Assembly (NCBI GenBank): GCA_902800045.1
Contig: CADCCZ010000008.1
Span: forward strand, 24,325 to 88,324
Source: an uncultured Bacteroidia bacterium
Lineage (GTDB): Bacteria; Bacteroidota; Bacteroidia; Bacteroidales; ML635J-15
Length of the DNA stretch: 64,000 nt
Direction of reading: 5' to 3'
In this document: positions 3,572-64,000 of the stretch, piece after piece
Layout of the letters: the number at the start of each line of letters is the position of its first letter
Numbering within the stretch: position 1 is the stretch's first letter
The notes under the pieces: generated by a model
Databases searched by the model: none
Told to the model about the DNA's origin: nothing
The model's input: only the letters and a program-made list of their open reading frames with translations
Made by a program: the position numbers and the translations under genes

Positions 3572-3808
3572 GGGAAAATTCACCACCCAGCACAAGCAAA
3601 AATGCGATTATATATTTAACCGCAAAACATAAATAAGAAAGGTTACACAAATGATAAAATAAGATGATTTAACAAGTTTTTTCGCTATGCTCAAAACTAG
3701 AAGGAATAACACAATCACGAACCGTTAGCTCAGCGTAGCCAACCTTTAGCTCGCGTAAGCAATAACACAAATAAGGTTTTTGCAAGCTCAAAACGAATAA
3801 AATACGAC

Positions 3809-4027
3809 CACGAATAACACGAATTTGCACGAATGAGGGATAGCAATTTTTTCGGCAAGCCGAAAAAAAATATTGGCTACGCCGATCTAAAGATTCGTGA
3901 GGATTCGTGAGATTCGTGGTAAAAAAAATCGTTCCGAGCACTGCGAGGAACCCAGCTATACCTTTAGTGATAAAAATTCGTTCCGAACACCGCAAGGAAC
4001 AAAAAAATAAATACTTTTGTGTTACAA
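3809..4027 (+). repeat. Direct repeat copy 1 (~215 nt) upstream of the GxxExxY gene
   Basis: Modules in order: CACGAAT x3 (3809, 3818, 3828); hairpin T6-CGGC-AA-GCCG-A8 (3847-3870); ATTGGCTACGCCGATCTAAAG; ATTCGTG x3 (3893, 3903, 3912); 21-mers at 3931-3951 and 3980-4000; an A-run; and a -7 box. Confidence 0.85.
4012..4019 (+). promoter_or_regulatory. Candidate -7 box TACTTTTG (inside repeat copy 1)
   Basis: Matches TAnnTTTG, 22 nt upstream of the GxxExxY ATG and preceded by an A-run. Confidence 0.5.
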
Positions 4028-4041
4028 ACATTGATGTAATT

Positions 4042-4419
4042 ATGACTGAAATTATATACAAAAAAGAATCATACGAAATAACTCGTTCAATATATGATGT
4101 GTATAACACCCTTGGAAATGGTTTTCTTGAAAGCGTATATCACGAAGCATTAGAATACGAACTTAGTAAGCGTGGAATTCCATTTGTTTCGAAACCAGAA
4201 ATAAAAATACATTATCATGACATCGTCCTACAACACACTTTTATTCCTGATATTGTATGTTACGACAAAATAATTCTTGAACTTAAATCCGTATCTCAAT
4301 TAATGGATGCACACATAGCTCAAGTTATGAATTACTTGAAAGCATGCAAAATGAAATTAGGTATGCTTGTAAATTTCGGAGAAACCAATGGAGTTGTGAT
4401 AAAACGAATTGTATTATAA
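4042..4419 (+). CDS. GxxExxY protein (PD-(D/E)XK nuclease-fold superfamily), 125 aa
   Basis: Track ORF 3907..4419 trimmed to ATG 4042 because the upstream part is translated repeat. The sequence MTEIIYKKESYEITRSIYDVYNTLGNGFLESVYHEALEYEL carries the family GxxExxY signature (GFLESVY). A TAnnTTTG box lies 22 nt upstream. Confidence 0.85.
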   Translation: MTEIIYKKESYEITRSIYDVYNTLGNGFLESVYHEALEYELSKRGIPFVSKPEIKIHYHDIVLQHTFIPDIVCYDKIILELKSVSQLMDAHIAQVMNYLKACKMKLGMLVNFGETNGVVIKRIVL

Positions 4420-4494
4420 TGTTTTTGCTACACTAAAAAGCACAAAGACAATCACAAAATGTTCTCCGCTATACGCTTCGAACAGAAAAAGCAA

Positions 4495-4713
4495 CCACAA
4501 ATTACACGAATCTACACGAATGAGAGATAGCATGCAATTTTTTTCGGCAAGTCGAAAAAAATATTGGCTACGCCGATCTAAAGATTCGTGAGGATTCGTG
4601 AGATTCGTGGTAAAAGATTCGTTCCGAGCACCGCGAAGGAACCCATTTGTACATTTGTGGTAAAAAATCATTCCGAGCACCGCGAGGAATAAAAAAATTA
4701 TTACCTTTGTGTT
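4495..4713 (+). repeat. Direct repeat copy 2 (~215 nt) upstream of porP
   Basis: Same module order as copy 1, offset by ~690 nt. A 54-nt stretch (tattggctacgccgatctaaagattcgtgaggattcgtgagattcgtggtaaaa) is identical in both copies. 21-mers lie at 4621-4642 and 4670-4690. Confidence 0.85.
4702..4709 (+). promoter_or_regulatory. Candidate -7 box TACCTTTG (inside repeat copy 2)
   Basis: Matches TAnnTTTG only 7 nt upstream of the porP ATG, which would imply a near-leaderless mRNA. Confidence 0.4.
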
Positions 4714-18826: not shown

Positions 18827-18978
18827 GGCCAAAAGGCTAAAAGAAGAAAAGGCTAAAAGTCAGGCGGAAGATCAGTCAGGCAGAAGACCAGTCTAACGGA
18901 AGACCTGTCTGACAGAAGACCTGTCTGACAGAAGACCAGTCTGCAAGACTGTTAGACTGCAAGACTGTCAGCCTGTCA
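18827..18978. repeat. Strictly phased 8-nt (16-nt super-period) degenerate tandem array, 19 units
   Basis: Units read ggccaaaa ggctaaaa gaagaaaa ggctaaaa gtcaggcg gaagatca gtcaggca gaagacca gtctaacg gaagacct gtctgaca gaagacct gtctgaca gaagacca gtctgcaa gactgtta gactgcaa gactgtca gcctgtca. There is no indel, and the array fills the whole convergent spacer. Confidence 0.9.
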
Positions 18979-19811: not shown

Positions 19812-19935
19812 AAAAATTATTCCGAACAAGGATACGCTTGAAATATGCACAGACAATTATGAATAAATAATGCACAATAATTTTTCTGCAATCCGATTAT
19901 TTACATTAAATTTACGACCTCAAAATGTATATTGC

Positions 19936-22167
19936 ATGAATAGGAAATTTTTACTTGTTTTGTTAGCTGTAACACTCTCTGCGTCAGCGTTTTCACAGCA
20001 GATTAAAGCCTTAGAGTTCATCTGGAAGGGCAAATACGACAATGCAGTAAAGGCAATAGAGAAAGGTCTGAGCAAGAACATGGACGATGTGGAATTCAAC
20101 TTCTATAAGGCGTATCTTCTGTTCCAAAGGGGATACGAAGGCTACGACCCGGTTGAATCGTACAAATGCCTGCTCAACTGCGAAACATACTATCCGCAAC
20201 TCGACGAAAAGACAAAGGAAAAACTGAATACCGTACCTATCAATCCCGAGGTGTTCAACAAGTACATCGACACCGTATGCCGTTACGCTCTGCGCGATGC
20301 GTCGGTAGCCAACACCTTCGAGGCCTACCAGAACTATCTGTTCTTCTACCGCAAGGCTCCCGAAGACTACAAGACCGAAGCCCGCATGTACCGCGACATC
20401 GAAGCATACAAGCTCGCAATTAAGTCCGACACCGAAGAATCGTACGACTCGTTCATCCGTACCTACCCCGAAGCTCAGCAGATTCCCGATGCAACCATGC
20501 GCCGCGATACAAAAGCCATGGAAAAGGCAAAGGCAGGAAACACTGTAGCATCGTTCGAAGAATTCCTGAAGAAGTACCCGAATTCGGCACTCGCTGGCGA
20601 AGCACAGGAACAAATCTACGTTATTGCACTTGCCGACGCCGAAAAGGAAAACACCTCGGCTGCTCTCAAGCAATACATGGAAAAATATCCTAAGAGTTCG
20701 CAGTACTACAAGGCCGAAATGATGTACGACGAAAAACTGTACAACGAAGAAACCGCCGACGGCAACTGCGGTTCGTACCTCCGCTTTGCAAAGAAATACC
20801 CGAACAGCAAATGGAACAATATGGCTCTCGCTTCGGCAATGCAGTGCGCAGGCGACAATGCCGAGGTTGCAAAATACTGCTTCAAGAAACTCGAGGGCGA
20901 CAAGAAAAAACAGGCACTCAAGCTGTACTACAACGTAATTGCTGCCGACGGCGAAATGATTTCGCTTAAGGCTTTGTACGACGAACTCGACAACAGCCAG
21001 CGTGCAATCATACGCGACAGCTACGTGGCCGACTCGGCAATTGCTGCCATGGGCGACAAGCTGAAACTGCAAGGCAAATACAATCCCAAGAAGGCCGAAT
21101 CGTACGACGAATACATTAAGCAGGCCGCTCCGAAGGAAAAGGCTTTCGTAGCACTGCAGAAGATGATAGAAACCGACATCGACAACAAAAACTGGGCAGG
21201 CGCTGCTGCTACGGTACAGAAATACCGCCAGTACTGGAAGGACAAGACAAAGAAGATTGACAATCTGCTTAGCATCCTCAACGAGAAATCGCAATCGGTT
21301 GTAGCCGAAGCTTTGCCCGAAACGGTAAATACTACAGGCAACGAATACAACCCGATACTTTCGTCCGATGGCAATACCTTGTACTTCTGTGGTGAAGGCC
21401 GCAGCAACAACAAGAGCGGCGAAGACATCTTCGTATCGGAAAGGACTGCCGACGGATGGAGCGAAGCCCAGATTATAAACGAAGTTTCGACAAAGGCAAA
21501 CGACTATCCGCAGTGCATCAACGCTTCGGGCAACACCATGTACATTTTCAAGAACGGAAGATTGTACTTCTCGAAGAAGGCCGGTGCCACCTGGGGAAAG
21601 CCGCAGAAAATGTCAAACAACGTAAACTCGAGCAACTGGCAGGGCGACGCTTTCCTGAGCCACGACGGAAAGGCTCTGTTATTCGCAGCTAAGCGCAGCG
21701 ACATGCTCAACATGTTCAACGATGCCGACTTCGACGGACTTGTATATCACGGAAAAGTTGACGAACACCAGACCGACCTGTACGTTTGCACTATCAACGC
21801 CGATGGCGAATGGGGCAAGCCAGTAAACCTCGGCGGAACGGTCAACACCCTTTACACCGAACGCACTCCGTTCCTTAGCAACGACAACAAGCACCTCTAC
21901 TTCGCTTCCGACGGACACGGAGGTCTTGGCGGACTCGACATGTACGTTTCTACCCGTCTTAGCAACGACTGCTGGGACTGCTGGAGCGAACCTGTAAACC
22001 TCGGCAAGGACATAAACTCCGCTTCCGACGACATGGGCTACAAGATCAGCACCGACGGAACCAAGGCTTACTTCTCGAAGTCGAACGCAGCAAAAGGCAA
22101 GAAGGGCAACCTCGATATCTTTATCATCAACCTTCCCGAAAACCTGCAACCAAAGAACATAAAGTAA
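19936..22167 (+). CDS. Secreted TPR-like and TolB/PD40-like beta-propeller repeat protein
   Basis: Track ORF trimmed to ATG 19936 (MNRKFLLVLLAVTLSASAFSQQ). The N-half is helical-repeat-like. The C-half has PD40-type repeats (NEYNPILSSDGNTLYFCGE, AFLSHDGKALLFAA, ERTPFLSNDNKHLYFASD, YKISTDGTKAYFSK). Confidence 0.7.
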   Translation: MNRKFLLVLLAVTLSASAFSQQIKALEFIWKGKYDNAVKAIEKGLSKNMDDVEFNFYKAYLLFQRGYEGYDPVESYKCLLNCETYYPQLDEKTKEKLNTVPINPEVFNKYIDTVCRYALRDASVANTFEAYQNYLFFYRKAPEDYKTEARMYRDIEAYKLAIKSDTEESYDSFIRTYPEAQQIPDATMRRDTKAMEKAKAGNTVASFEEFLKKYPNSALAGEAQEQIYVIALADAEKENTSAALKQYMEKYPKSSQYYKAEMMYDEKLYNEETADGNCGSYLRFAKKYPNSKWNNMALASAMQCAGDNAEVAKYCFKKLEGDKKKQALKLYYNVIAADGEMISLKALYDELDNSQRAIIRDSYVADSAIAAMGDKLKLQGKYNPKKAESYDEYIKQAAPKEKAFVALQKMIETDIDNKNWAGAAATVQKYRQYWKDKTKKIDNLLSILNEKSQSVVAEALPETVNTTGNEYNPILSSDGNTLYFCGEGRSNNKSGEDIFVSERTADGWSEAQIINEVSTKANDYPQCINASGNTMYIFKNGRLYFSKKAGATWGKPQKMSNNVNSSNWQGDAFLSHDGKALLFAAKRSDMLNMFNDADFDGLVYHGKVDEHQTDLYVCTINADGEWGKPVNLGGTVNTLYTERTPFLSNDNKHLYFASDGHGGLGGLDMYVSTRLSNDCWDCWSEPVNLGKDINSASDDMGYKISTDGTKAYFSKSNAAKGKKGNLDIFIINLPENLQPKNIK

Positions 22168-23660: not shown

Positions 23661-23755
23661 AAAAGTTAATATACACCACGCAAGAATTAAAAGCTAAGCC
23701 ATTTGTTAAATGGGTTGGAGGAAAAGGTCAACTTCTCAGCCAACTTGAATTATAA
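23657..23755 (+). pseudogene. N-terminal remnant (32 codons) of a Dam/DpnM-type (alpha-class) N6-adenine DNA methyltransferase gene
   Basis: My translation is MKKLIYTTQELKAKPFVKWVGGKGQLLSQLEL followed by a stop. KPF.KW.GGK..LL is the conserved N-terminal motif of Dam-family methylases. The ATG overlaps the symporter stop. Confidence 0.6.
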
Positions 23756-23780
23756 TTTGTTATTGTGCTACATAAGTTTT

Positions 23781-24551
23781 ATGGATTTAAATTTTAATCG
23801 TAAGTTAGCAATTGGTTATAAAAGCGGTTCTCAAATATCGAGAGTTGTAACAGAAGATTGGGTTGAACATAATATGTTTTGTCCCATATGTGGTGCTAGA
23901 ATTTTAAATCATTATGAAGCCAACAAACCTGTAGCGGATTTCTTTTGTGATGAATGTAAATCGGACTTTGAATTAAAAAGTAAAGAGAGTAAAAATGCGA
24001 ATATAGGCAATAAAATAACAGATGGTGCTTATGCAACGATGATAGACAGAATCACATCGTTAAAGAATCCACATTTATTTGTGATGACATATTATAATTG
24101 GGCAGTAAACAATCTACTTATAATTCCTAACTACTTTTTTGTCCCTGATATAATTGAAAAGCGTCAACCTTTGAAAGAAACTGCCCGTAGGGCAGGATGG
24201 ATAGGATGTAATATTGAAATAGGGAAAATCCCTGATAGTGGCAAAATATTTATCATCAAAAACAGCCAACAAGAAGATAAATTTAAAGTTATAGACCTTT
24301 ATCAACGAACATTAACATTACAAACTAAAAGAATTGAAAATAGAGGTTGGCTGTTGGATGTACTAAAATGTGTGGAACGCATACCTACAGATAATTTTAA
24401 ACTTGATGATGTATATGTTTTTGCCAAAGAACTTAAGAGAAAGCATCCTGACAATAATTATGTTCATGATAAAATTCGACAACAACTACAATATCTTAGG
24501 GATAAAGGTTTTATTAAATTCACATCAAGAGGACACTATCAAAAAATATAA
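23781..24551 (+). CDS. DpnI-like (Dam-replacing family) methyl-directed type IIM restriction endonuclease
   Basis: Track ORF trimmed to ATG 23781 (MDLNFNRKLAIGYKSGSQISRVVTEDWV). It is collinear with S. pneumoniae DpnI as I recall it, including CP.CG...L.H.E.N.PVADF.C..C...FELKSK, DGAY.TM, TARRAGWIGCNI, and a C-terminal winged-helix end (KIRQQLQ.LRDK). The gene is AT-rich. Confidence 0.85.
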   Translation: MDLNFNRKLAIGYKSGSQISRVVTEDWVEHNMFCPICGARILNHYEANKPVADFFCDECKSDFELKSKESKNANIGNKITDGAYATMIDRITSLKNPHLFVMTYYNWAVNNLLIIPNYFFVPDIIEKRQPLKETARRAGWIGCNIEIGKIPDSGKIFIIKNSQQEDKFKVIDLYQRTLTLQTKRIENRGWLLDVLKCVERIPTDNFKLDDVYVFAKELKRKHPDNNYVHDKIRQQLQYLRDKGFIKFTSRGHYQKI

Positions 24552-24557
24552 TAAACG

Positions 24558-24788
24558 ATGAACGAATATATATTTTACACTACTGAAGGATATACCATAT
24601 CACCGAATAACAATGATGTTGATAATTGCCAAGTACTTGGTTTGGTTTGTGGGAAAAATGTTACTGATGCCCAAAGAAATCTTATAAAAGAGAATCCGTG
24701 GATTAAAAAATTTGGTTATGATATTAATAAAATTATCTGCAAGCAATTGATTACAGATGAAATAAAAAACTTTCTGACAAGCAAATGA
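24558..24788 (+). CDS. Hypothetical small protein (76 aa) downstream of the DpnI-like gene
   Basis: ORF only, with no family recognised. The start lies 7 nt after the DpnI-like stop. Its last ~9 codons overlap the methyltransferase remnant in another frame. Confidence 0.35.
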   Translation: MNEYIFYTTEGYTISPNNNDVDNCQVLGLVCGKNVTDAQRNLIKENPWIKKFGYDINKIICKQLITDEIKNFLTSK

Positions 24789-25156
24789 CGGATGTATGGC
24801 GTTTGCCAGCAATTGCCCAGTGGGAAAAGTCGTGCGGAAAACATCCAACACAAAAACCTTTGGCTCTATTAACACGCATAATTTTAGCATCAACACCTAA
24901 GAACGCTTGGATTCTTGACCCATTTGCAGGTAGTAGCACCACAGGAATTGCAGCAAATCTAATTTCTAGACGTTATCTCGGTATAGAAAAAGAAATATCA
25001 TTTGCAGAAATTGCAAAACAACGAAGATTAGAAATTGAAAATTTAAACAAATTCGCAGAATTCCAATCCAAAATAAAAGATATTTCAATTTCAAAACTTT
25101 ACAATCAGGCTAATCTTCTATGCGAACACTCCGTTTGCGACGACTTACCTTTCTAA
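24761..25156 (+). pseudogene. C-terminal remnant of a beta-class (DpnA-like) N6/N4 DNA methyltransferase. It lacks the catalytic DPPY half.
   Basis: Track ORF 24785..25156 reads MTDVWRLPAIAQWEKSCGKHPTQKPLALLTRIILASTPKNAWILDPFAGSSTTG. This is the HPTQKP and DPF.GSGTT (AdoMet-binding) end only. In-frame similarity (KKLSDKQ) extends upstream to a stop at 24758-24760. The FxGxG glycine is replaced (GSSTT). Confidence 0.65.
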
Positions 25157-26672: not shown

Positions 26673-26781
26673 GCCACAAAGATAAGGAAAAGATTAGCTT
26701 TGGGGATTAAAAATTCAAAGATTTGATAATTCAATGATTCGATGAGATTATTACAATTTACATCTGGCATCAACATTGTAC

Positions 26782-27024
26782 AGACGCAATTCATTGCGTC
26801 TCAACAGAACGGCGAAGCCATTCAAACCCAGAAACGTGCGAAGCACATTCAAACGCCGCAGGCATTGAAACGGCGTCAGCCACAGAAACAGCGAAGCGAG
26901 AAACGTGCGAAGCACACTGAAACGGGCGTAGCCCATTCAAACGCCGCAGGCATTCAAACGCCGCAGGCATTCAAACAGCGAAGCATAGAAACGTGCGAAG
27001 CACACTGAAACAGCGTCAGCCCAC
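26782..27024. repeat. Hairpin AGACGCAAT-TC-ATTGCGTCT followed by a ~17-nt degenerate tandem array (~12 units) of GNA-loop mini-hairpins
   Basis: Units have the form (C/G)AAAC, then a GC mini-hairpin, then CA(C/T)(A/T). Examples are gtgc-gaa-gcac, gcc-gca-ggc, ggc-gtca-gcc and gggc-gta-gccc. Confidence 0.85.
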
Positions 27025-27139
27025 AAAAAAACCCGCCCGATGACTGAGAATCACCGAGCGGAACCCTATGAAAAAAGCAAATTACTAACCTAATTCAGTA
27101 TTTCCAATCAAAAAAACAATCTTCAATCAGAAATTATTC

Positions 27140-27147
27140 TATTTTTG
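27140..27147 (+). promoter_or_regulatory. Candidate -7 box TATTTTTG
   Basis: 64 nt upstream of the antiporter ATG 27212. Confidence 0.4.
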
Positions 27148-46981: not shown

Positions 46982-47569
46982 CTACAAATAATTCAACGCC
47001 AACTTGATAACTGTCTCGAGAGAAGCATCTGGCTTTTCTTTCAACACCTTGTCAAGCACTTTTTCTACCGCTGCCTTCGCAAAGCCAAGGGTGGTTAAGG
47101 TTAATAACGCATCTTTCTTGATTGTATTGTCCGAAGCAGCAAAAATTTCTGCACTATCGAATTCACCCGATGTATTCACCTTATCCTTGAGGTCGAGAAT
47201 AATACGCTGCGCAGTCTTTGCTCCGATGCCCTTCACACCTTTCAACTTTACCAGATTCTCGCTGAGTATTGCGTTTGTAAGGTCTTGCGGCGTAAGCGAC
47301 GACAATATCAGACGAGCAGTATTTGGTCCTACTCCGTTTACCGAAATCAGAAGGCGGAAAAGTTCGCGCTCCACCTTGGTGACAAAGCCAAACAACAGAT
47401 GAGCATCCTCGCGAACTACCTGATGCAGATATAGTTGTGCCTGTGCTCCCTGCGTTAAAGCCGAATACGAAGTAAGGCTTATATTGACAAAGTAGCCTAT
47501 GCCCCCAGCCTCCACAACTGCGTATGCAGGATTGAGCTCAGCCACATTGCCTTTGATATATTCGTACAT
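46982..47569 (-). CDS. ruvA: Holliday junction branch migration complex subunit RuvA
   Basis: 195 aa. Starts MYEYIKGNV..AVVEAGGIGY and has the HhH region (LISVNGVGPNTARLILS, LKGVKGIGAKTAQRIILDL). Confidence 0.93.
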   Translation of the reverse strand: MYEYIKGNVAELNPAYAVVEAGGIGYFVNISLTSYSALTQGAQAQLYLHQVVREDAHLLFGFVTKVERELFRLLISVNGVGPNTARLILSSLTPQDLTNAILSENLVKLKGVKGIGAKTAQRIILDLKDKVNTSGEFDSAEIFAASDNTIKKDALLTLTTLGFAKAAVEKVLDKVLKEKPDASLETVIKLALNYL

Positions 47570-47594
47570 AGTTATCCTAATATAAATTGAAGCG

Positions 47595-47602
47595 CAAAAT
47601 TA
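47595..47602 (-). promoter_or_regulatory. Candidate -7 box TAATTTTG (minus strand)
   Basis: 25 nt upstream of the ruvA ATG 47569 (ruvA-sprA unit). Confidence 0.5.
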
Positions 47603-47611
47603 ATATTTTAA

Positions 47612-47709
47612 TTGATAATGGACAATGGATAATTAATAATTGACAATGAACAATTAGCTTCGCTGAGCTAAAGGTTGATAATGGACAATGGATGTTTAAT
47701 TTTAATGGG
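47612..47709. repeat. Word repeat block (TTGATAATGGACAATGGAT x2) shared with 61517-61578
   Basis: ttgataatggacaatggat occurs at 47612-47630 and 47675-47693. The ~65-nt stretch aattgacaat..aattagcttcgctgagctaaaggttgataatggacaatggat..taatggg recurs upstream of the giant gene. Confidence 0.8.
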
Positions 47710-47782
47710 CTAAAAGGCTAAAAGGCTGACAGGCGAACAGGCTAACGGGCTAGCAGGCTGACAGGCTTGAAGGCTAAAAGCC
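47708..47782. repeat. Strictly phased 8-nt array, 9 units (GGCTNNNN)
   Basis: Units read ggctaaaa ggctaaaa ggctgaca ggcgaaca ggctaacg ggctagca ggctgaca ggcttgaa ggctaaaa. Confidence 0.9.
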
Positions 47783-47841
47783 GTTTGTACAAGCGCAATT
47801 CATTGCGTCTCAGAAACGGCGAAGCCGCTCAAACGCTATGC

Positions 47842-47960
47842 TTGGAATATCTGTCTCGATACTGCATAACTGTTGACTAGCTGCGTACCTGACGGCAGCC
47901 TCATTCGGTCGGATTTTATCCTACCGAAGCATTGTCCCTAACGGGACAGGAGACAGATAA
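47842..47960. mobile_element. Candidate MITE-like or structured-RNA insertion (119 nt) inside the 17-nt array
   Basis: It is flanked by direct TATGC repeats (47837-47841 and 47961-47965). It has 10-bp inverted repeats tatctgtctc (47848-47857) and gagacagata (47950-47959). Three internal hairpins are present. Removing it restores a regular array unit. Confidence 0.4.
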
Positions 47961-47965
47961 TATGC

Positions 47966-48263
47966 CACAGAAACGGCATCAGCCATTCAAACAGCGAAGC
48001 GAGAAACGCCGAAGGCATTGAAACGGCGTCAGCCATTGAAACCTTGAAACGGCGTCAGCCACAGAAACGGCGAAGCTATTCAAACAGCGAAGCGATAAAC
48101 GCCGCAGGCATAAAAACGGCGTAGCCACAGAAACGTGCGAAGCACATAGAAACTTGAAACGCCGCAGGCATTGAAACGGCGTCAGCCACAGAAACGCCGA
48201 AGGCATTCAAACGGCGAAGCCACTGTAACGGCGCCAGCCACTGAAACGCCGAAGGCACAAAAA
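47966..48263. repeat. ~17-nt degenerate tandem array of GNA-loop mini-hairpins (~18 units), second locus
   Basis: Same grammar as 26802-27024, with units such as ggc-gaa-gcc, gcc-gaa-ggc, gcc-gca-ggc, ggc-gta-gcc, gtgc-gaa-gcac and ggc-gtca-gcc. The array head and hairpin lie at 47793-47841. Confidence 0.85.
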
Positions 48264-48276
48264 CTGGCTTTTGCCC

Positions 48277-48837
48277 TCAGAACTGATAACTAACCTTTAC
48301 CACTGGATTTGAATAAATGGAGTACATCGATTCGTCGAAATTGTACATCACCGACAACACCATGTACGACCTCTGCCCTATCGGCACCTGAAATCCCAGA
48401 CCGAGCATTGGTGAGGCTATCCACATTGGTTCTTCGCCCGAGAGTGCGGTGTAGAACTTGCCCATGTTGGTGTACGAAAACTGTCCGTAAACGAGTATTC
48501 CCATGTCGGTACCGAGAAAGGGAATAAGTTCGCCAAGGCTCTTTATCACCGTAAAACTGGCAAATACCGAACCTCCGAAAATGCTACCCTTGAAATTGTA
48601 TTCCTCCGAATATACAAACATATAGTCGATGCCCACGCCTGCCGAGAGCCTGTTTGTAATACGGTAGCCGACTTCAGGACTAAGCGAAATCTGCGTCACC
48701 GTGCCAAAGCCCATATCGAGGTTGCCTCCAAAAAATATACGCTGCACGGGCGATGGCGGCGGATCCTTCTCAAGATACTGCGCATCGAGTCCCAAGACAG
48801 ACGCAAGAAACAATATTGACAGCAGTATCTTCTTCAT
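48277..48837 (-). CDS. Small outer-membrane beta-barrel protein
   Basis: 186 aa with a signal peptide, alternating beta-strand pattern and a terminal ..KVSYQF. The start lies 2 nt after the upstream gene's stop. Confidence 0.65.
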   Translation of the reverse strand: MKKILLSILFLASVLGLDAQYLEKDPPPSPVQRIFFGGNLDMGFGTVTQISLSPEVGYRITNRLSAGVGIDYMFVYSEEYNFKGSIFGGSVFASFTVIKSLGELIPFLGTDMGILVYGQFSYTNMGKFYTALSGEEPMWIASPMLGLGFQVPIGQRSYMVLSVMYNFDESMYSIYSNPVVKVSYQF

Positions 48838-51851: not shown

Positions 51852-51923
51852 TGTAATTTATTCTGTCATTTTTTAAGCAATGCAAAAAAAGTACCAACAA
51901 AAAGGTGTGAAGAGAGGAGAAAA

Positions 51924-51987
51924 GGCGGACAGGCTTGAAGGCTAACGGGCTAAAAGGCTAGAAGGCTAAAAGACGAAAAGGCAACTT
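51924..51987. repeat. Phased 8-nt array, 8 units
   Basis: Units read ggcggaca ggcttgaa ggctaacg ggctaaaa ggctagaa ggctaaaa gacgaaaa ggcaactt. Confidence 0.85.
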
Positions 51988-52003
51988 CAAACTCAAAGGG
52001 CTT

Positions 52004-52452
52004 AAAACGACAACTAGAACAACACGAGACAACAAGGTTCCTCGCAGGGCTCGGAACAAATATATTTTACCACGAACCTTTAGCTCGGCGTAGCCAATTG
52101 CACGAATTTACACGAATATGTTCCTCGCGAGGCTCGGAACGAAAAGAAGAAAACGACAACAAAAACAACAAGGGACAACATAGGACAACAAGAGGGTTCC
52201 TCGCAGGGCTCGGAACGAATAGGAGAAAACGACAACAGAAACAACAAGGGACAACAAAGGACAACAAGAGGATTTCTCACAAGGCTCGGGAAAAAAGGTT
52301 GTCAAAGGTTGTCATAAGTTGTCTTGGTTGTCGTAAAAAGAAGAAAACGACAACCGGAACAACAATAAACAACAAAGGACAACAAATGGGGTTCCTCGCG
52401 GGGCTCGGAAAAAATGTTGTCTGAGGTTGTCAAAGGTTGTCTTGGTTGTCGT
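52004..52452 (-). repeat. Composite intergenic element, copy C (upstream of the GH3 operon, downstream of the giant gene)
   Basis: Built from AAAACGACAAC..GACAAC word arms, 21-mers (52037, 52120, 52196, 52271, 52391), the module ttaccacgaacctttagctcggcgtagccaattgcacgaatttacacgaat, and GTTGTC word arms. Confidence 0.85.
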
Positions 52453-52483
52453 AAAAAAAAAGAAAAAATCCCCGTGGCGGGGA
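52452..52483 (-). terminator. Terminator after the giant cargo gene
   Basis: Stem tccccg/cgggga with loop tgg. On the minus strand it is followed by attttttcttttttttt. Confidence 0.7.
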
Positions 52484-61578: not shown

Positions 61579-61884
61579 GTTATGATAGAGGATTTGATAA
61601 TTTGGGAATGCTGCTTCGATAAATGAGGAAACAGAATTATTTACAATAGGCTGATTATAAATGCTTTTACGCCACCCTATCGGGTTTGAGGCACTATGGC
61701 ATAATACATTGATAATGCACGACACACTAAACAATTTCATAAAATAAAGTAACAAACAAAAATAAAACAACTAACAAAGGTGTAAAAATATAAATTTCAC
61801 GAGAAACTATAGTACCACAAAGAGGTTTTTATACAAAATGGAGAGTAAGGAATATTTGAAGCAGAATTGGTGAGAGAAAAGGAG

Positions 61885-62190
61885 AAAACGACAATAGGAA
61901 CAACAACAAACAACAAAGTTCCTCGCAGGGCTCGGAACAACAAAAAAAGAAAACGACAACATGGACAACATAAGACAACAAGGGGTTCCTCGCGGAGCTC
62001 GGAACGAATATTTTTTACCACGAATTGCACGAATTTACACGAATATGTTCCTCGCAAGGCTCAGAACGGAAAGAAGAAACGACAACAGGAACAACAACAA
62101 ACAACAAGGAACAACAAGGTTCCTCGAGAGGCTCGGAAAAAAGGTTGTCATAAGTTGTCTTGGTTGTCGTAAAAAGAAGAAAACGACAGC
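61885..62190 (-). repeat. Composite intergenic element, copy D (upstream of the giant gene)
   Basis: Same module order as copy C. 21-mers lie at 61918, 61985, 62047 and 62119. The submodule cctttagctcggcgtagccaat is missing. Confidence 0.85.
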
Positions 62191-63724: not shown

Positions 63725-63742
63725 GGGGCGAGAAGGCGGGAG

Positions 63743-64000
63743 AAAACGACAACAGGAACAACACGAGACAACAAAAGGTTCCTCGCGGAGCTCGGAACGA
63801 ATATTTTTTACCACGAACCTTTAGCTCGGCGTAGCCAATTACACGAATATACACGAATAGGATTCCTCGCGGAGCTCGGAATGGAAAGAAGAAAACGACA
63901 ACAAAAACAACATAAAACAACAAGGAACAACAAAGGGGGTTCCTCGCAGGGCTCGGAAAAAAAGTTGTCAAAGGTTGTCATAAGTTGTCTTGGTTGTCGT
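63743..64000 (-). repeat. Composite intergenic element, copy H (upstream of the ATPase gene, runs to the window end)
   Basis: Collinear with copy C at roughly 85-90 percent identity by eye. 21-mers lie at 63778, 63862 and 63939. Confidence 0.85.

Follow-up and report, generated by a model that had tools for sequence, protein, structure and literature searches.

Here, we report that two intergenic arrays of head-to-tail ~17-nt hairpin units in a 64,000-nt chromosomal stretch of an uncultured ruminant Bacteroidales (assembly GCA_902800045.1, contig CADCCZ010000008.1, positions 24,325 to 88,324; this whole stretch is called the window below) are, with a rough probability of 0.6, hypervariable minisatellites that grow and shrink in place. 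On this reading they are one module of a mosaic extragenic repeat resembling either the repetitive extragenic palindromes and bacterial interspersed mosaic elements (REP/BIME) or BrickBuilt, and the repeat unit, as part of the same reading, is probably a minimal extragenic palindrome, i.e., a mini-hairpin of the d(GCGNAGC)/d(C-GNA-G) type on one strand set in a conserved (S)AAAC...A frame. The repeat system appears to fill the long intergenic regions of a rumen Bacteroidales clade, and the same unit grammar seems to extend to other Bacteroidota. The 17-nt unit array is the commonest module of the mosaic; alongside it stand a hairpin tagged with TGTACA, microsatellites of 7-, 8- and 10-mers, a module of the form A7-hairpin-T7, and an element of ~95–125 nt that derives from the 3' flank of a Y1 HUH transposase gene.

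The turnover of such arrays can be pictured as follows. Whenever the DNA becomes single-stranded, at the replication fork or during transposition of single-stranded DNA (ssDNA), units on the GNA strand would fold into very stable hairpins; the hairpins would align identical AAAC frames and lead to slippage and unequal exchange; blocks of one to five units would be gained or lost in place; and units that keep a closed C-G/GNA hairpin would persist and multiply. Because hairpin-competent units are the ones propagated, complementarity would be maintained without any function for the neighbouring genes.

Hairpin units with complementary stems

Each unit consists of (C/G/T/A)AAAC, a G+C stem of 3–4 bp, a loop, the complementary stem and then A(T/C)(T/A/G), and the loops in the window are GAA, GCA, GTA, GTCA or GCCA. 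Splitting at AAAC gave 12 units for array 1 and ~19 for array 2, each of 15–19 nt, plus stubs of 7–8 nt. Tandem Repeats Finder reported periods of 17, 52 and 88, indicating that the arrays are built of higher-order blocks. In array 1 the stems are GGC/GCC, GCC/GGC, GTGC/GCAC, GGGC/GCCC and AGC/GCG, with GAA, GCA, GTA and GTCA as loops. An earlier examination of the letters alone (the sequence-only reading) had described two loci with this grammar; it is borne out, all of the stems that it listed are present, and its 12 units for array 1 hold, but array 2 has nearer 19 than the 20 that it gave.

For statistics, 291 units (128 distinct) were drawn from the window, from eight strains of the same species and from ~35 arrays of other genomes; the search pattern used for the other genomes left both middle stem positions free. 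Among 127 units of 17 nt, the middle stem pair was G..C in 58, C..G in 60, G..G in 4 and C..C in 3 (Fisher p = 8e-27; 1.4e-6 on distinct unit sequences). With 46 distinct units, paired cells amounted to 95.7% versus 82.7 ± 2.5% in shuffles, and the covariation score was 0.326 versus 0.145 ± 0.026, with none of 500 shuffles as high; slid registers were at most 38% paired. Stem complementarity far beyond chance is therefore confirmed, though it is less rich than the seven stems of the sequence-only reading, which had been taken as compensatory, would suggest: only one of the three stem pairs (G-C/C-G) changes on both sides, and the remaining stem variation consists of paired insertions giving stems of 4–5 bp (GTGC/GCAC, GGGC/GCCC, GGGGC/GCCCC). 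Independent compensatory events are few because the units multiply by duplication.

The loops counted were GAA (54), GCA (39), GTA (38), GTCA (14) and GCCA (4), with TTTA/TTTT mostly in terminal units.

One strand of the arrays matches the DNA mini-hairpin

The two strands of the arrays are very different in their loops. Hairpins of 3 bp with a G..A loop closed by C-G are found 22 times on the plus strand and once on the minus strand, and the exact GCGNAGC/GCGNNAGC motifs 14 + 6 = 20 times on the plus strand and 0 times on the minus strand. Among GCNNNGC sequences only those with GNA loops fold as the mini-hairpin, d(GCGNAGC) having a melting temperature (Tm) of 70–76 °C and r(GCGAAAGC) one of 39 °C; TTC or TTTT loops, as on the complementary strand, confer no special stability and no nuclease resistance (PMC13037366). 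The match to the mini-hairpin consensus on one strand only thus favours a role as ssDNA, i.e., the plus strand of the arrays would act in a single-stranded form. The single-stranded nucleic acid form proposed in the sequence-only reading is reasonable, ssDNA being the most likely.

Units with GGC/GCC, AGC/GCG and GTGC/GCAC stems contain exactly the heptamers or octamers described for DNA mini-hairpins (Hirao; PMC13037366), and the array loops are likewise GNA or GNNA, C-G closed and confined to one strand. There are differences as well. The natural mini-hairpins are single hairpins at ssDNA phage origins, at single-strand initiation (ssi) sites and in N4 promoters rather than chromosomal arrays, and the GCC/GGC class of units has C-C-GNA-G-G instead of G-C-GNA-G-C. 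The GGA loop is never used in the arrays (absent among >200 units collected), even though the reported stability of d(GCGGAGC) equals that of the GCA and GTA forms (PMC13037366). Nearest-neighbour folding of the arrays gave only modest z-scores, -2.4 to -3.3, which is expected because standard folding parameters do not capture mini-hairpin stability (PMC13037366).

Turnover between strains and sister species

The arrays differ greatly between closely related genomes. At locus 2, eight assemblies with identical RuvA and flanks 94–98% identical have a spacer of 484–1274 nt between the 186-aa gene and ruvA, with 9–40 hairpin units in the five assemblies that span the whole spacer; at locus 1, the spacer is 563–908 nt with 7–24 units in eight assemblies with identical dNK. 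The unit-count polymorphism for which the sequence-only reading had proposed a check is thus large. First and last units are kept between strains and the interior differs by blocks of units, with block duplications visible; composite blocks (8-mers, header, two units, 125-nt element, two units) are duplicated one to three times in other strains. One strain (L132) has lost the header, and the element core is missing at locus 1 in the window strain, a truncated copy being there in seven of the eight other strains.

Sister species extend this observation. A species whose RuvA is 93% identical has a locus-2 spacer of 186 nt with one or two degenerate unit remnants, and where RuvA is 86% identical the spacer is 110 nt without units; the gene order GH3-186aa-ruvA-sprA is the same and the proximal ruvA promoter region is conserved. 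Locus 1 of a sister species has 2–4 units (two full ones plus stubs), no header and the same tail hairpin, as against 12–24 units. These differences indicate that the arrays lengthen and shorten in place within a short time and that they are dispensable for the neighbouring genes; the arrays are not regulators of the adjacent genes. The sequence-only reading had tied a role of the arrays to the divergent promoter or to the ruvA-sprA-gcvH unit, and had itself named absence from syntenic relatives as evidence to the contrary; sister species without or nearly without units at syntenic loci are exactly what we found.

A small array of 17-nt units was also observed in a related species (L047, positions 3617–3704; GH3 gene 87% identical at the nucleotide level). 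It was considered as the syntenic counterpart of array 2 and rejected, as the BLAST coordinates put it upstream of GH3. Its counterpart in the window, at about 51900–52000, contains 8-mer and 10-mer repeats, so the same spacer is filled by different repeat modules in related genomes.

Distribution and gene context

A scan of one genome per species, with one unit plus the next AAAC as the query, found matches mostly in ruminant Bacteroidales metagenome-assembled genomes (MAGs), several loci each; among the matches listed were >40 arrays, from MAGs of ruminant Bacteroidales, Cytophagales and Capnocytophaga, and other phyla were represented by single-match loci at about the chance number and without arrays. 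The unit grammar is the same in all array-bearing groups found, the Cytophagales arrays being inverted doublets just after stop codons. A viral origin was rejected, since phage contigs are essentially without arrays: the viral contig scan gave 15 single chance matches in coding DNA and one tiny array. In plasmids there was no DNA match.

Gene context was read for ~35 arrays with heuristic open reading frame (ORF) calls, giving 10 convergent, 8 tandem sense, 8 tandem antisense and 4 divergent cases. Thus 26 of 30 arrays, all intergenic, are between convergent or co-directional genes, which is a trend only (chi-square p ~0.3). REPs, too, lie mostly between convergent and co-directional genes (PMC3733652). 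From the array tail to the stop codon the median is ~17 nt, often 10–20 nt, and start codons are farther off. The equal sense and antisense counts mean that there is no preferred array orientation to transcription. A promoter-linked role finds no support here either, as the arrays elsewhere stand in either orientation and mostly beside stop codons, not promoters.

It could be argued that the arrays are double-stranded iterons for a dimeric protein that recognises GGC-N3-GCC or GCC-N3-GGC and acts on the divergent promoter or on chromosome structure, given the conserved frame of the short palindromic units and the position of array 1 between divergent genes. We regard this as very improbable. 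Only 4 of 30 arrays are between divergent genes, units spaced by 17 nt do not keep helical phase, their stems range from 3 to 5 bp, and the asymmetry of the loop (G..A on one strand only) is not required by a symmetric duplex site; moreover, the number of units is free to vary, and sister species lack the arrays.

The closeness to stop codons brings in another explanation, namely that the arrays act in RNA as E. coli REPs do in 3' untranslated regions, with rows of hairpins right behind stop codons protecting the upstream mRNA from 3' exonucleases, insulating adjacent transcription units, or titrating an RNA-binding protein as a sponge. Many arrays start or end 10–20 nt from a stop codon with divergent spacers the rarest, the same pattern as in published REPs (PMC3733652), and both array strands fold better than shuffles (z = -3.0 and -3.3). 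In addition, two sets of rumen RNA runs, compared with both loci as unstranded Logan contigs, contain array sequences in the RNA-derived assemblies. Their depth, however, equals that of the genes and continues across a divergent promoter, as DNA carry-over would give. Arrays are placed sense as often as antisense relative to the gene upstream, although only one strand has the conserved G..A loop; RNA hairpins of 3 bp are marginal at rumen temperature, as the Tm of the ribo-form given above illustrates; G.T and A.C mismatches are about equally common in the stems; and sister species dispense with the arrays. All together, an RNA role, the decoy or sponge of the sequence-only reading included, seems quite unlikely to us.

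The element interrupting array 2 and its link to a Y1 transposase

The sequence-only reading had left 47841–47965 as a break in array 2; instead, this is a distinct element associated with Y1 transposases. It folds into a closed multi-hairpin structure (z-scores -4.1 and -3.7) and has inverted 10-nt arms, TATCTGTCTC (47848–47857) and GAGACAGATA (47950–47959). By BLAST, tandem copies of its core are found right behind the stop codon of a Y1 gene of 153 aa in L035, behind the Y1 gene in L134–L140, and behind its 86% orthologue in L163. The 153-aa protein matches Pfam Y1_Tnp (2.9e-30) and NCBIfam IS200/IS605 (3.5e-22), whereas its score for NCBIfam REP_Tyr_transpos is 28, below the cutoff of 80; by its motifs DHIH, WQ and YIEKQQEHH it belongs to subclass 1.2 of the TnpA-Y1 proteins as defined by Quentin et al. 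This subclass is low-copy, occurs in Bacteroidetes and Cyanobacteria, lacks insertion sequence (IS) ends and is listed as "REP: no" (Quentin et al., PMC6006769). With the Y1 gene beginning 11 nt past mazG, a left IS end is lacking. Seven strains carry 3–9 tandem repeats of ~120 nt after the Y1 gene (L134–L140 1963–3124; L035 1–330), and the arrangement is the same with the 86% orthologue, where the stop codon of the gene is inside the left edge of the core. Please note that gene callers annotate these tandem repeats as ORFs of 154–401 aa, with no Pfam domain.

A metagenome scan with the core gave 34 matches, five of them Y1-adjacent tandem copies and 29 dispersed. On their 3' side, all 29 dispersed copies run into ..GACAGATAATGCCACT and then a unit array, with fixed junctions; on their 5' side is the TGTACA header, the header plus two units, or a ..CTCAACGAAG module. 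The converse fails, i.e., most arrays have no core. A Y1 gene is absent from the window, and tblastn of the Y1 protein against all fetched array loci found one only in L035, at a distance of 6 kb. A non-autonomous element derived from IS200/IS605 (palindrome-associated transposable element, PATE) has ends that come from the IS, with subterminal hairpins on one strand, and inserts 3' of a fixed tetra- or pentanucleotide without duplicating the target. Judged against this, the 125-nt element has the Y1 3'-flank origin and fixed junctions, but it has inverted arms and no left IS end. This Y1-transposase-associated element is the strongest lead to the nature of the system, and the arrays are its constant partner, either a landing site or a co-travelling tail.

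Other subclass-1.2 loci (Prevotellaceae, Alkalitalea and another Bacteroidales lineage) have hairpins of the form ..CC-[GTYA/TRAC]-GG.. plus an TTTTTACCGAnG motif in the 5' flank, and in Bernardetia the Y1 gene is between inverted AGCTGCGTAGCTGCG repeats found nowhere else in 40 kb. On the Bernardetia plasmid NZ_CP147018.1 (L203), the repeats at 19887–19954 and 20499–20563, which flank the subclass-1.2-like Y1 gene, comprise two direct and two inverted copies of AGCTGC(G/A)TAGCTGCG; this is a REPtron-like arrangement in a clade reported to be without REPs.

These data make it necessary to consider that the arrays are substrates or products of a domesticated subclass-1.2 Y1 (HUH) transposase, in a manner similar to REPs and their REP-associated tyrosine transposases (RAYTs), or that the Y1-associated element prefers them as landing pads. 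In the former case, recognition of the mini-hairpin together with the AAAC frame on ssDNA would let the enzyme nick and re-join there, build head-to-tail arrays and mobilise the composite of header, core and array. HUH Y1 enzymes do act on ssDNA hairpins (PMC6006769), the 3' flank of the Y1 gene, stop codon included, makes up the element core and forms 3–9 tandem copies there, the dispersed cores are without exception joined to arrays, and subclass-1.2 genes of several lineages, Bernardetia included, are flanked by C-G-closed GTYA/TRAC hairpins or GCGTAGC motifs. The protein is ~65% identical across Bacteroidota, which fits the wide conservation of the unit grammar. Nevertheless, except for the 6-kb proximity in L035, there is no Y1 gene in the window or beside ~40 arrays, most arrays are without core and without header, tetraloops of the GTYA/TRAC type are what is kept beside Y1 genes, unlike the GAA/GCA/GTA loops that prevail in the arrays, and subclass 1.2 is the one listed as without REP by Quentin et al. 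(PMC6006769). We therefore rate this explanation as rather unlikely, and a role for the Y1 enzyme as possible. In its most specific form, the unit arrays, the TGTACA-tagged hairpin and the 120-nt core would be the cognate repeat system of the domesticated enzyme, which would construct or remodel head-to-tail arrays by working on ssDNA at GNA/GNNA mini-hairpins; we take this form to be unlikely.

Several points weigh against the arrays being minisatellites without a host role. That ssDNA folding takes place in vivo, that slippage is the engine and that a host function is absent is what we infer. The same grammar across Bacteroidota orders is poorly explained by neutral slippage and hints at a conserved trans-acting partner or function; that such a partner, be it Y1 or some other nuclease, works on the units, as grammar conservation across orders would argue, seems to us a doubtful proposition all the same. 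The arrays are present in the RNA-derived assemblies at about the depth of the flanking genes, together with many contigs from other arrays. The unit counts were taken from short-read metagenome assemblies, in which tandem repeats may be collapsed or wrongly joined, and one contig ends at an array. A local GC-skew test for replication-strand bias, a crude one, was not significant (13 of 33, p = 0.3); the window's own GC skew is flat.

Comparison with known repeat systems

The arrays are most like REP/BIME clusters in their working and most like BrickBuilt of Porphyromonas in their architecture. With REP/BIME and their RAYT (TnpA-REP) they have in common short extragenic palindromes with a conserved unpaired flank, present in many copies that are clustered, sometimes tandem and variable between strains. 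In both, the copies share mosaic spacers with other motifs and mostly separate convergent or co-directional genes, and the same lineage also has a gene for a Y1 HUH enzyme with related hairpins on its flanks. They differ in size, the array palindrome being 9–11 nt with a stem of 3–5 bp and a period of 17 nt compared with 20–40 nt and a stem of at least 5 bp. Long head-to-tail arrays are the rule here, whereas head-to-tail dimers are rare in REP families, and there is no unpaired GTAG or CGTC tag (PMC3733652), the frame of the array units being (S)AAAC before the stem and A after it. Finally, the linked Y1 is of subclass 1.2 (IS200-like), not a class 2 RAYT, and its gene is flanked by the 95–125-nt core, not by 17-nt units.

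BrickBuilt of Porphyromonas gingivalis (PMC4596501) is likewise from Bacteroidales, always intergenic and different in copy number between loci and strains. Compared by description, it has the same architecture of a leader, a spacer-less tandem repeat of ~20 nt (1 to ~23 copies) and a tail, and it has partial forms without leader or tail, much as the array leader is missing from most arrays elsewhere. Its unit, however, is 23 nt versus 15–19 nt in the arrays, neither a mini-hairpin grammar nor a Y1 link is reported for it, and it has terminal inverted repeats, which here are limited to the arms of the 125-nt element.

Neisseria dRS3/NTS (CGTC-type REP) with the GIY-YIG ssDNA nuclease Ssn (PMC11893778) similarly combine abundant hairpin repeats, GNNA-like tips and mosaic intergenic regions; those repeats work through ssDNA with a dedicated nuclease, a model for a possible trans-acting partner of the arrays. 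Of the window proteins that were scanned, none has a GIY-YIG domain. The sequences are not similar, NTS copies are dispersed rather than in 17-nt tandem arrays, and the CGTC-ATTCCC-GCGMAVGC-GGGAAT frame is absent from units and header. The STRR or TAACTGA heptamer arrays of Cyanobacteria, Beggiatoaceae and some Bacteroidetes (PMC4679880) are intergenic direct repeats of phyla that also hold Y1 subclass 1.2, and the window has heptamer arrays beside array 2; heptamers have no hairpin, in contrast to the structured 17-nt units. No account of such arrays was found in the literature searched, the coverage of which is incomplete.

Layout of the two loci

The window encodes, according to Pfam, type IX secretion system cargo proteins, SprA, RuvA, GcvH, SecDF, PGK and FBPase, and its DNA is matched in bovine and sheep gut metagenomes. 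Array 1 is flanked by the gene of a 265-aa secreted-looking protein (minus strand) and a Na+/H+ exchanger gene (plus strand), array 2 by the stop codon of the 186-aa gene and the ruvA promoter, both on the minus strand. The end of array 2 is AAACTGGCTTTTGCCC, which directly abuts the stop codon (48277). Coordinates are collected in Table 1.

Table 1. Features of the two array loci in window coordinates
Feature	Positions	Strand	Description
Header module, array 1	26777–26803	+	TGTACA (26777–26782), 9-bp hairpin AGACGCAAT-TC-ATTGCGTCT (26782–26801), then CA
Array 1	26804–27028	+	12 full hairpin units and one 8-nt stub
Locus 1 tail	27025–27062	-	A7 run and imperfect 14-bp hairpin; on the minus strand hairpin plus T7, terminator-like
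8-mer GGCTNANA repeats	47708–47785	+	Commonly 5' of the header in the composite; true for most metagenome copies
Header module, array 2	47786–47811	+	TGTACA (47786–47791), variant hairpin AGCGCAAT-TC-ATTGCGTCT (47792–47810)
Array 2, first two units	47812–47840	+	Second unit cut by the inserted element
Structured element inside array 2	47841–47965	+	125 nt; core 47871–47948 homologous to Y1 gene 3' flank
Array 2 main body	47966–48276	+	~17 hairpin units (47966–48260) and two 7–8-nt stubs (AAACCTTG, AAACTTG)

Both loci start with the same kind of header hairpin and TGTACA, as had been noticed from the letters, but this is no general heading, since it precedes only ~4 of 35 arrays elsewhere. The header module, TGTACA-GRCGCAA-N4-TTGCGYC-TCA, is present in several other MAGs with or without arrays. 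It was considered as a CGTC-type REP and rejected, as the CGTC is paired within the stem and the frame differs; by reading of the sequence, the Bacteroidetes promoter motif TAnnTTTG is absent at the header. The tail hairpin of locus 1 is kept in all strains and in the sister species L200, where both arms carry changes. At 27025–27140, the terminator-like hairpin on the minus strand has no minus-strand gene upstream, and the next ~80 nt are also conserved in the sister species; this region may be a small minus-strand RNA or an orphan terminator.

An 88-aa ORF over array 1 (26742–27008) was rejected as coding, because unit number varies between strains and a period of 17 nt, being no multiple of 3, breaks the reading frame. 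A CRISPR array was rejected as well, there being no unique spacers, a period of 15–19 nt where CRISPR repeats have 24–48 nt, no cas domains among the window proteins and no Rfam CRISPR-DR match. Rfam 15 gave 0 matches at the gathering score in the whole window and only chance-level ones at E <= 10 on 47560–48300, with no match beyond chance level (E <= 10) in the Y1 gene flanks either. No tRNA or tmRNA genes were found in the window.

Other mosaic regions and a strain-specific island

Nearly every long intergenic region of the window is a mosaic of short tandem modules common to distant loci, i.e., 18827–18976, 47708–47785, 51920–52470, 61880–62190 and 63740–64000. The modules include the 8-mers GGCTNANA, the 16-mer AGTCAGGCAGAAGACC, the decamers ACAACAAGGG with the inverse GGTTGTC, and GTTCCTCGCAGGGCTCGGAAC hairpins. 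An A7-GCGGAATCAGATGCTGAAACAAGTTCAGCATGACATTCCGC-T7 module, similar to a bidirectional terminator, recurs inside arrays of L021, L080, L171, L177, L181, L185 and L200. Upstream of ruvA (47609–47700) is a heptamer array of AATGGAC/AATGGAT/AATGAAC with ~8 copies in the window and ~30 in strains with identical RuvA (L006/L007); the GATAAT-rich sequence bears a loose likeness to Fur-box-like or DnaA-box-like words.

At 3790–4700, a gene for a GxxExxY/PDDEXK_3 nuclease (4042–4419, plus strand) is between two copies of a ~160-nt mosaic block, of which 61 nt are identical (3864–3924 and 4555–4615). The blocks contain the GGCGTAGCC mini-hairpin, (GATTCGTG)3 and GTTCCGAGCAC..GGAAC hairpins, and the gene has the look of a cassette that either entered the repeat mosaic or was duplicated along with it. 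A strain-specific island at 23703–25156 comprises a DpnI-like restriction gene, an ORF of 76 aa and a truncated N6/N4 DNA methylase gene. It is present in the window and in L131 (same assembly) and absent in seven other strains, where the SSF transporter gene adjoins dNK.

Meaning for the clade

If the minisatellite reading holds, the arrays would represent an undescribed extragenic repeat family in a large rumen clade and apparently in other Bacteroidota, the unit of which is the smallest stable DNA hairpin known. They would offer a natural system for the effects of d(GCGNAGC) mini-hairpins on replication and recombination in vivo, and would be highly discriminating strain markers for uncultured rumen Bacteroidales. 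They are also a warning that intergenic lengths and ORFs called in array regions are unreliable in short-read MAGs. The attachment of the repeats to Y1 subclass 1.2, a clade without a known substrate, would make its function testable. Should the cognate Y1 system be true, a REP-RAYT-like symbiosis would exist a second time, independently and with an architecture of its own, and the short tandem repeats that characterise intergenic regions of Bacteroidota and Cyanobacteria might find an explanation in it.

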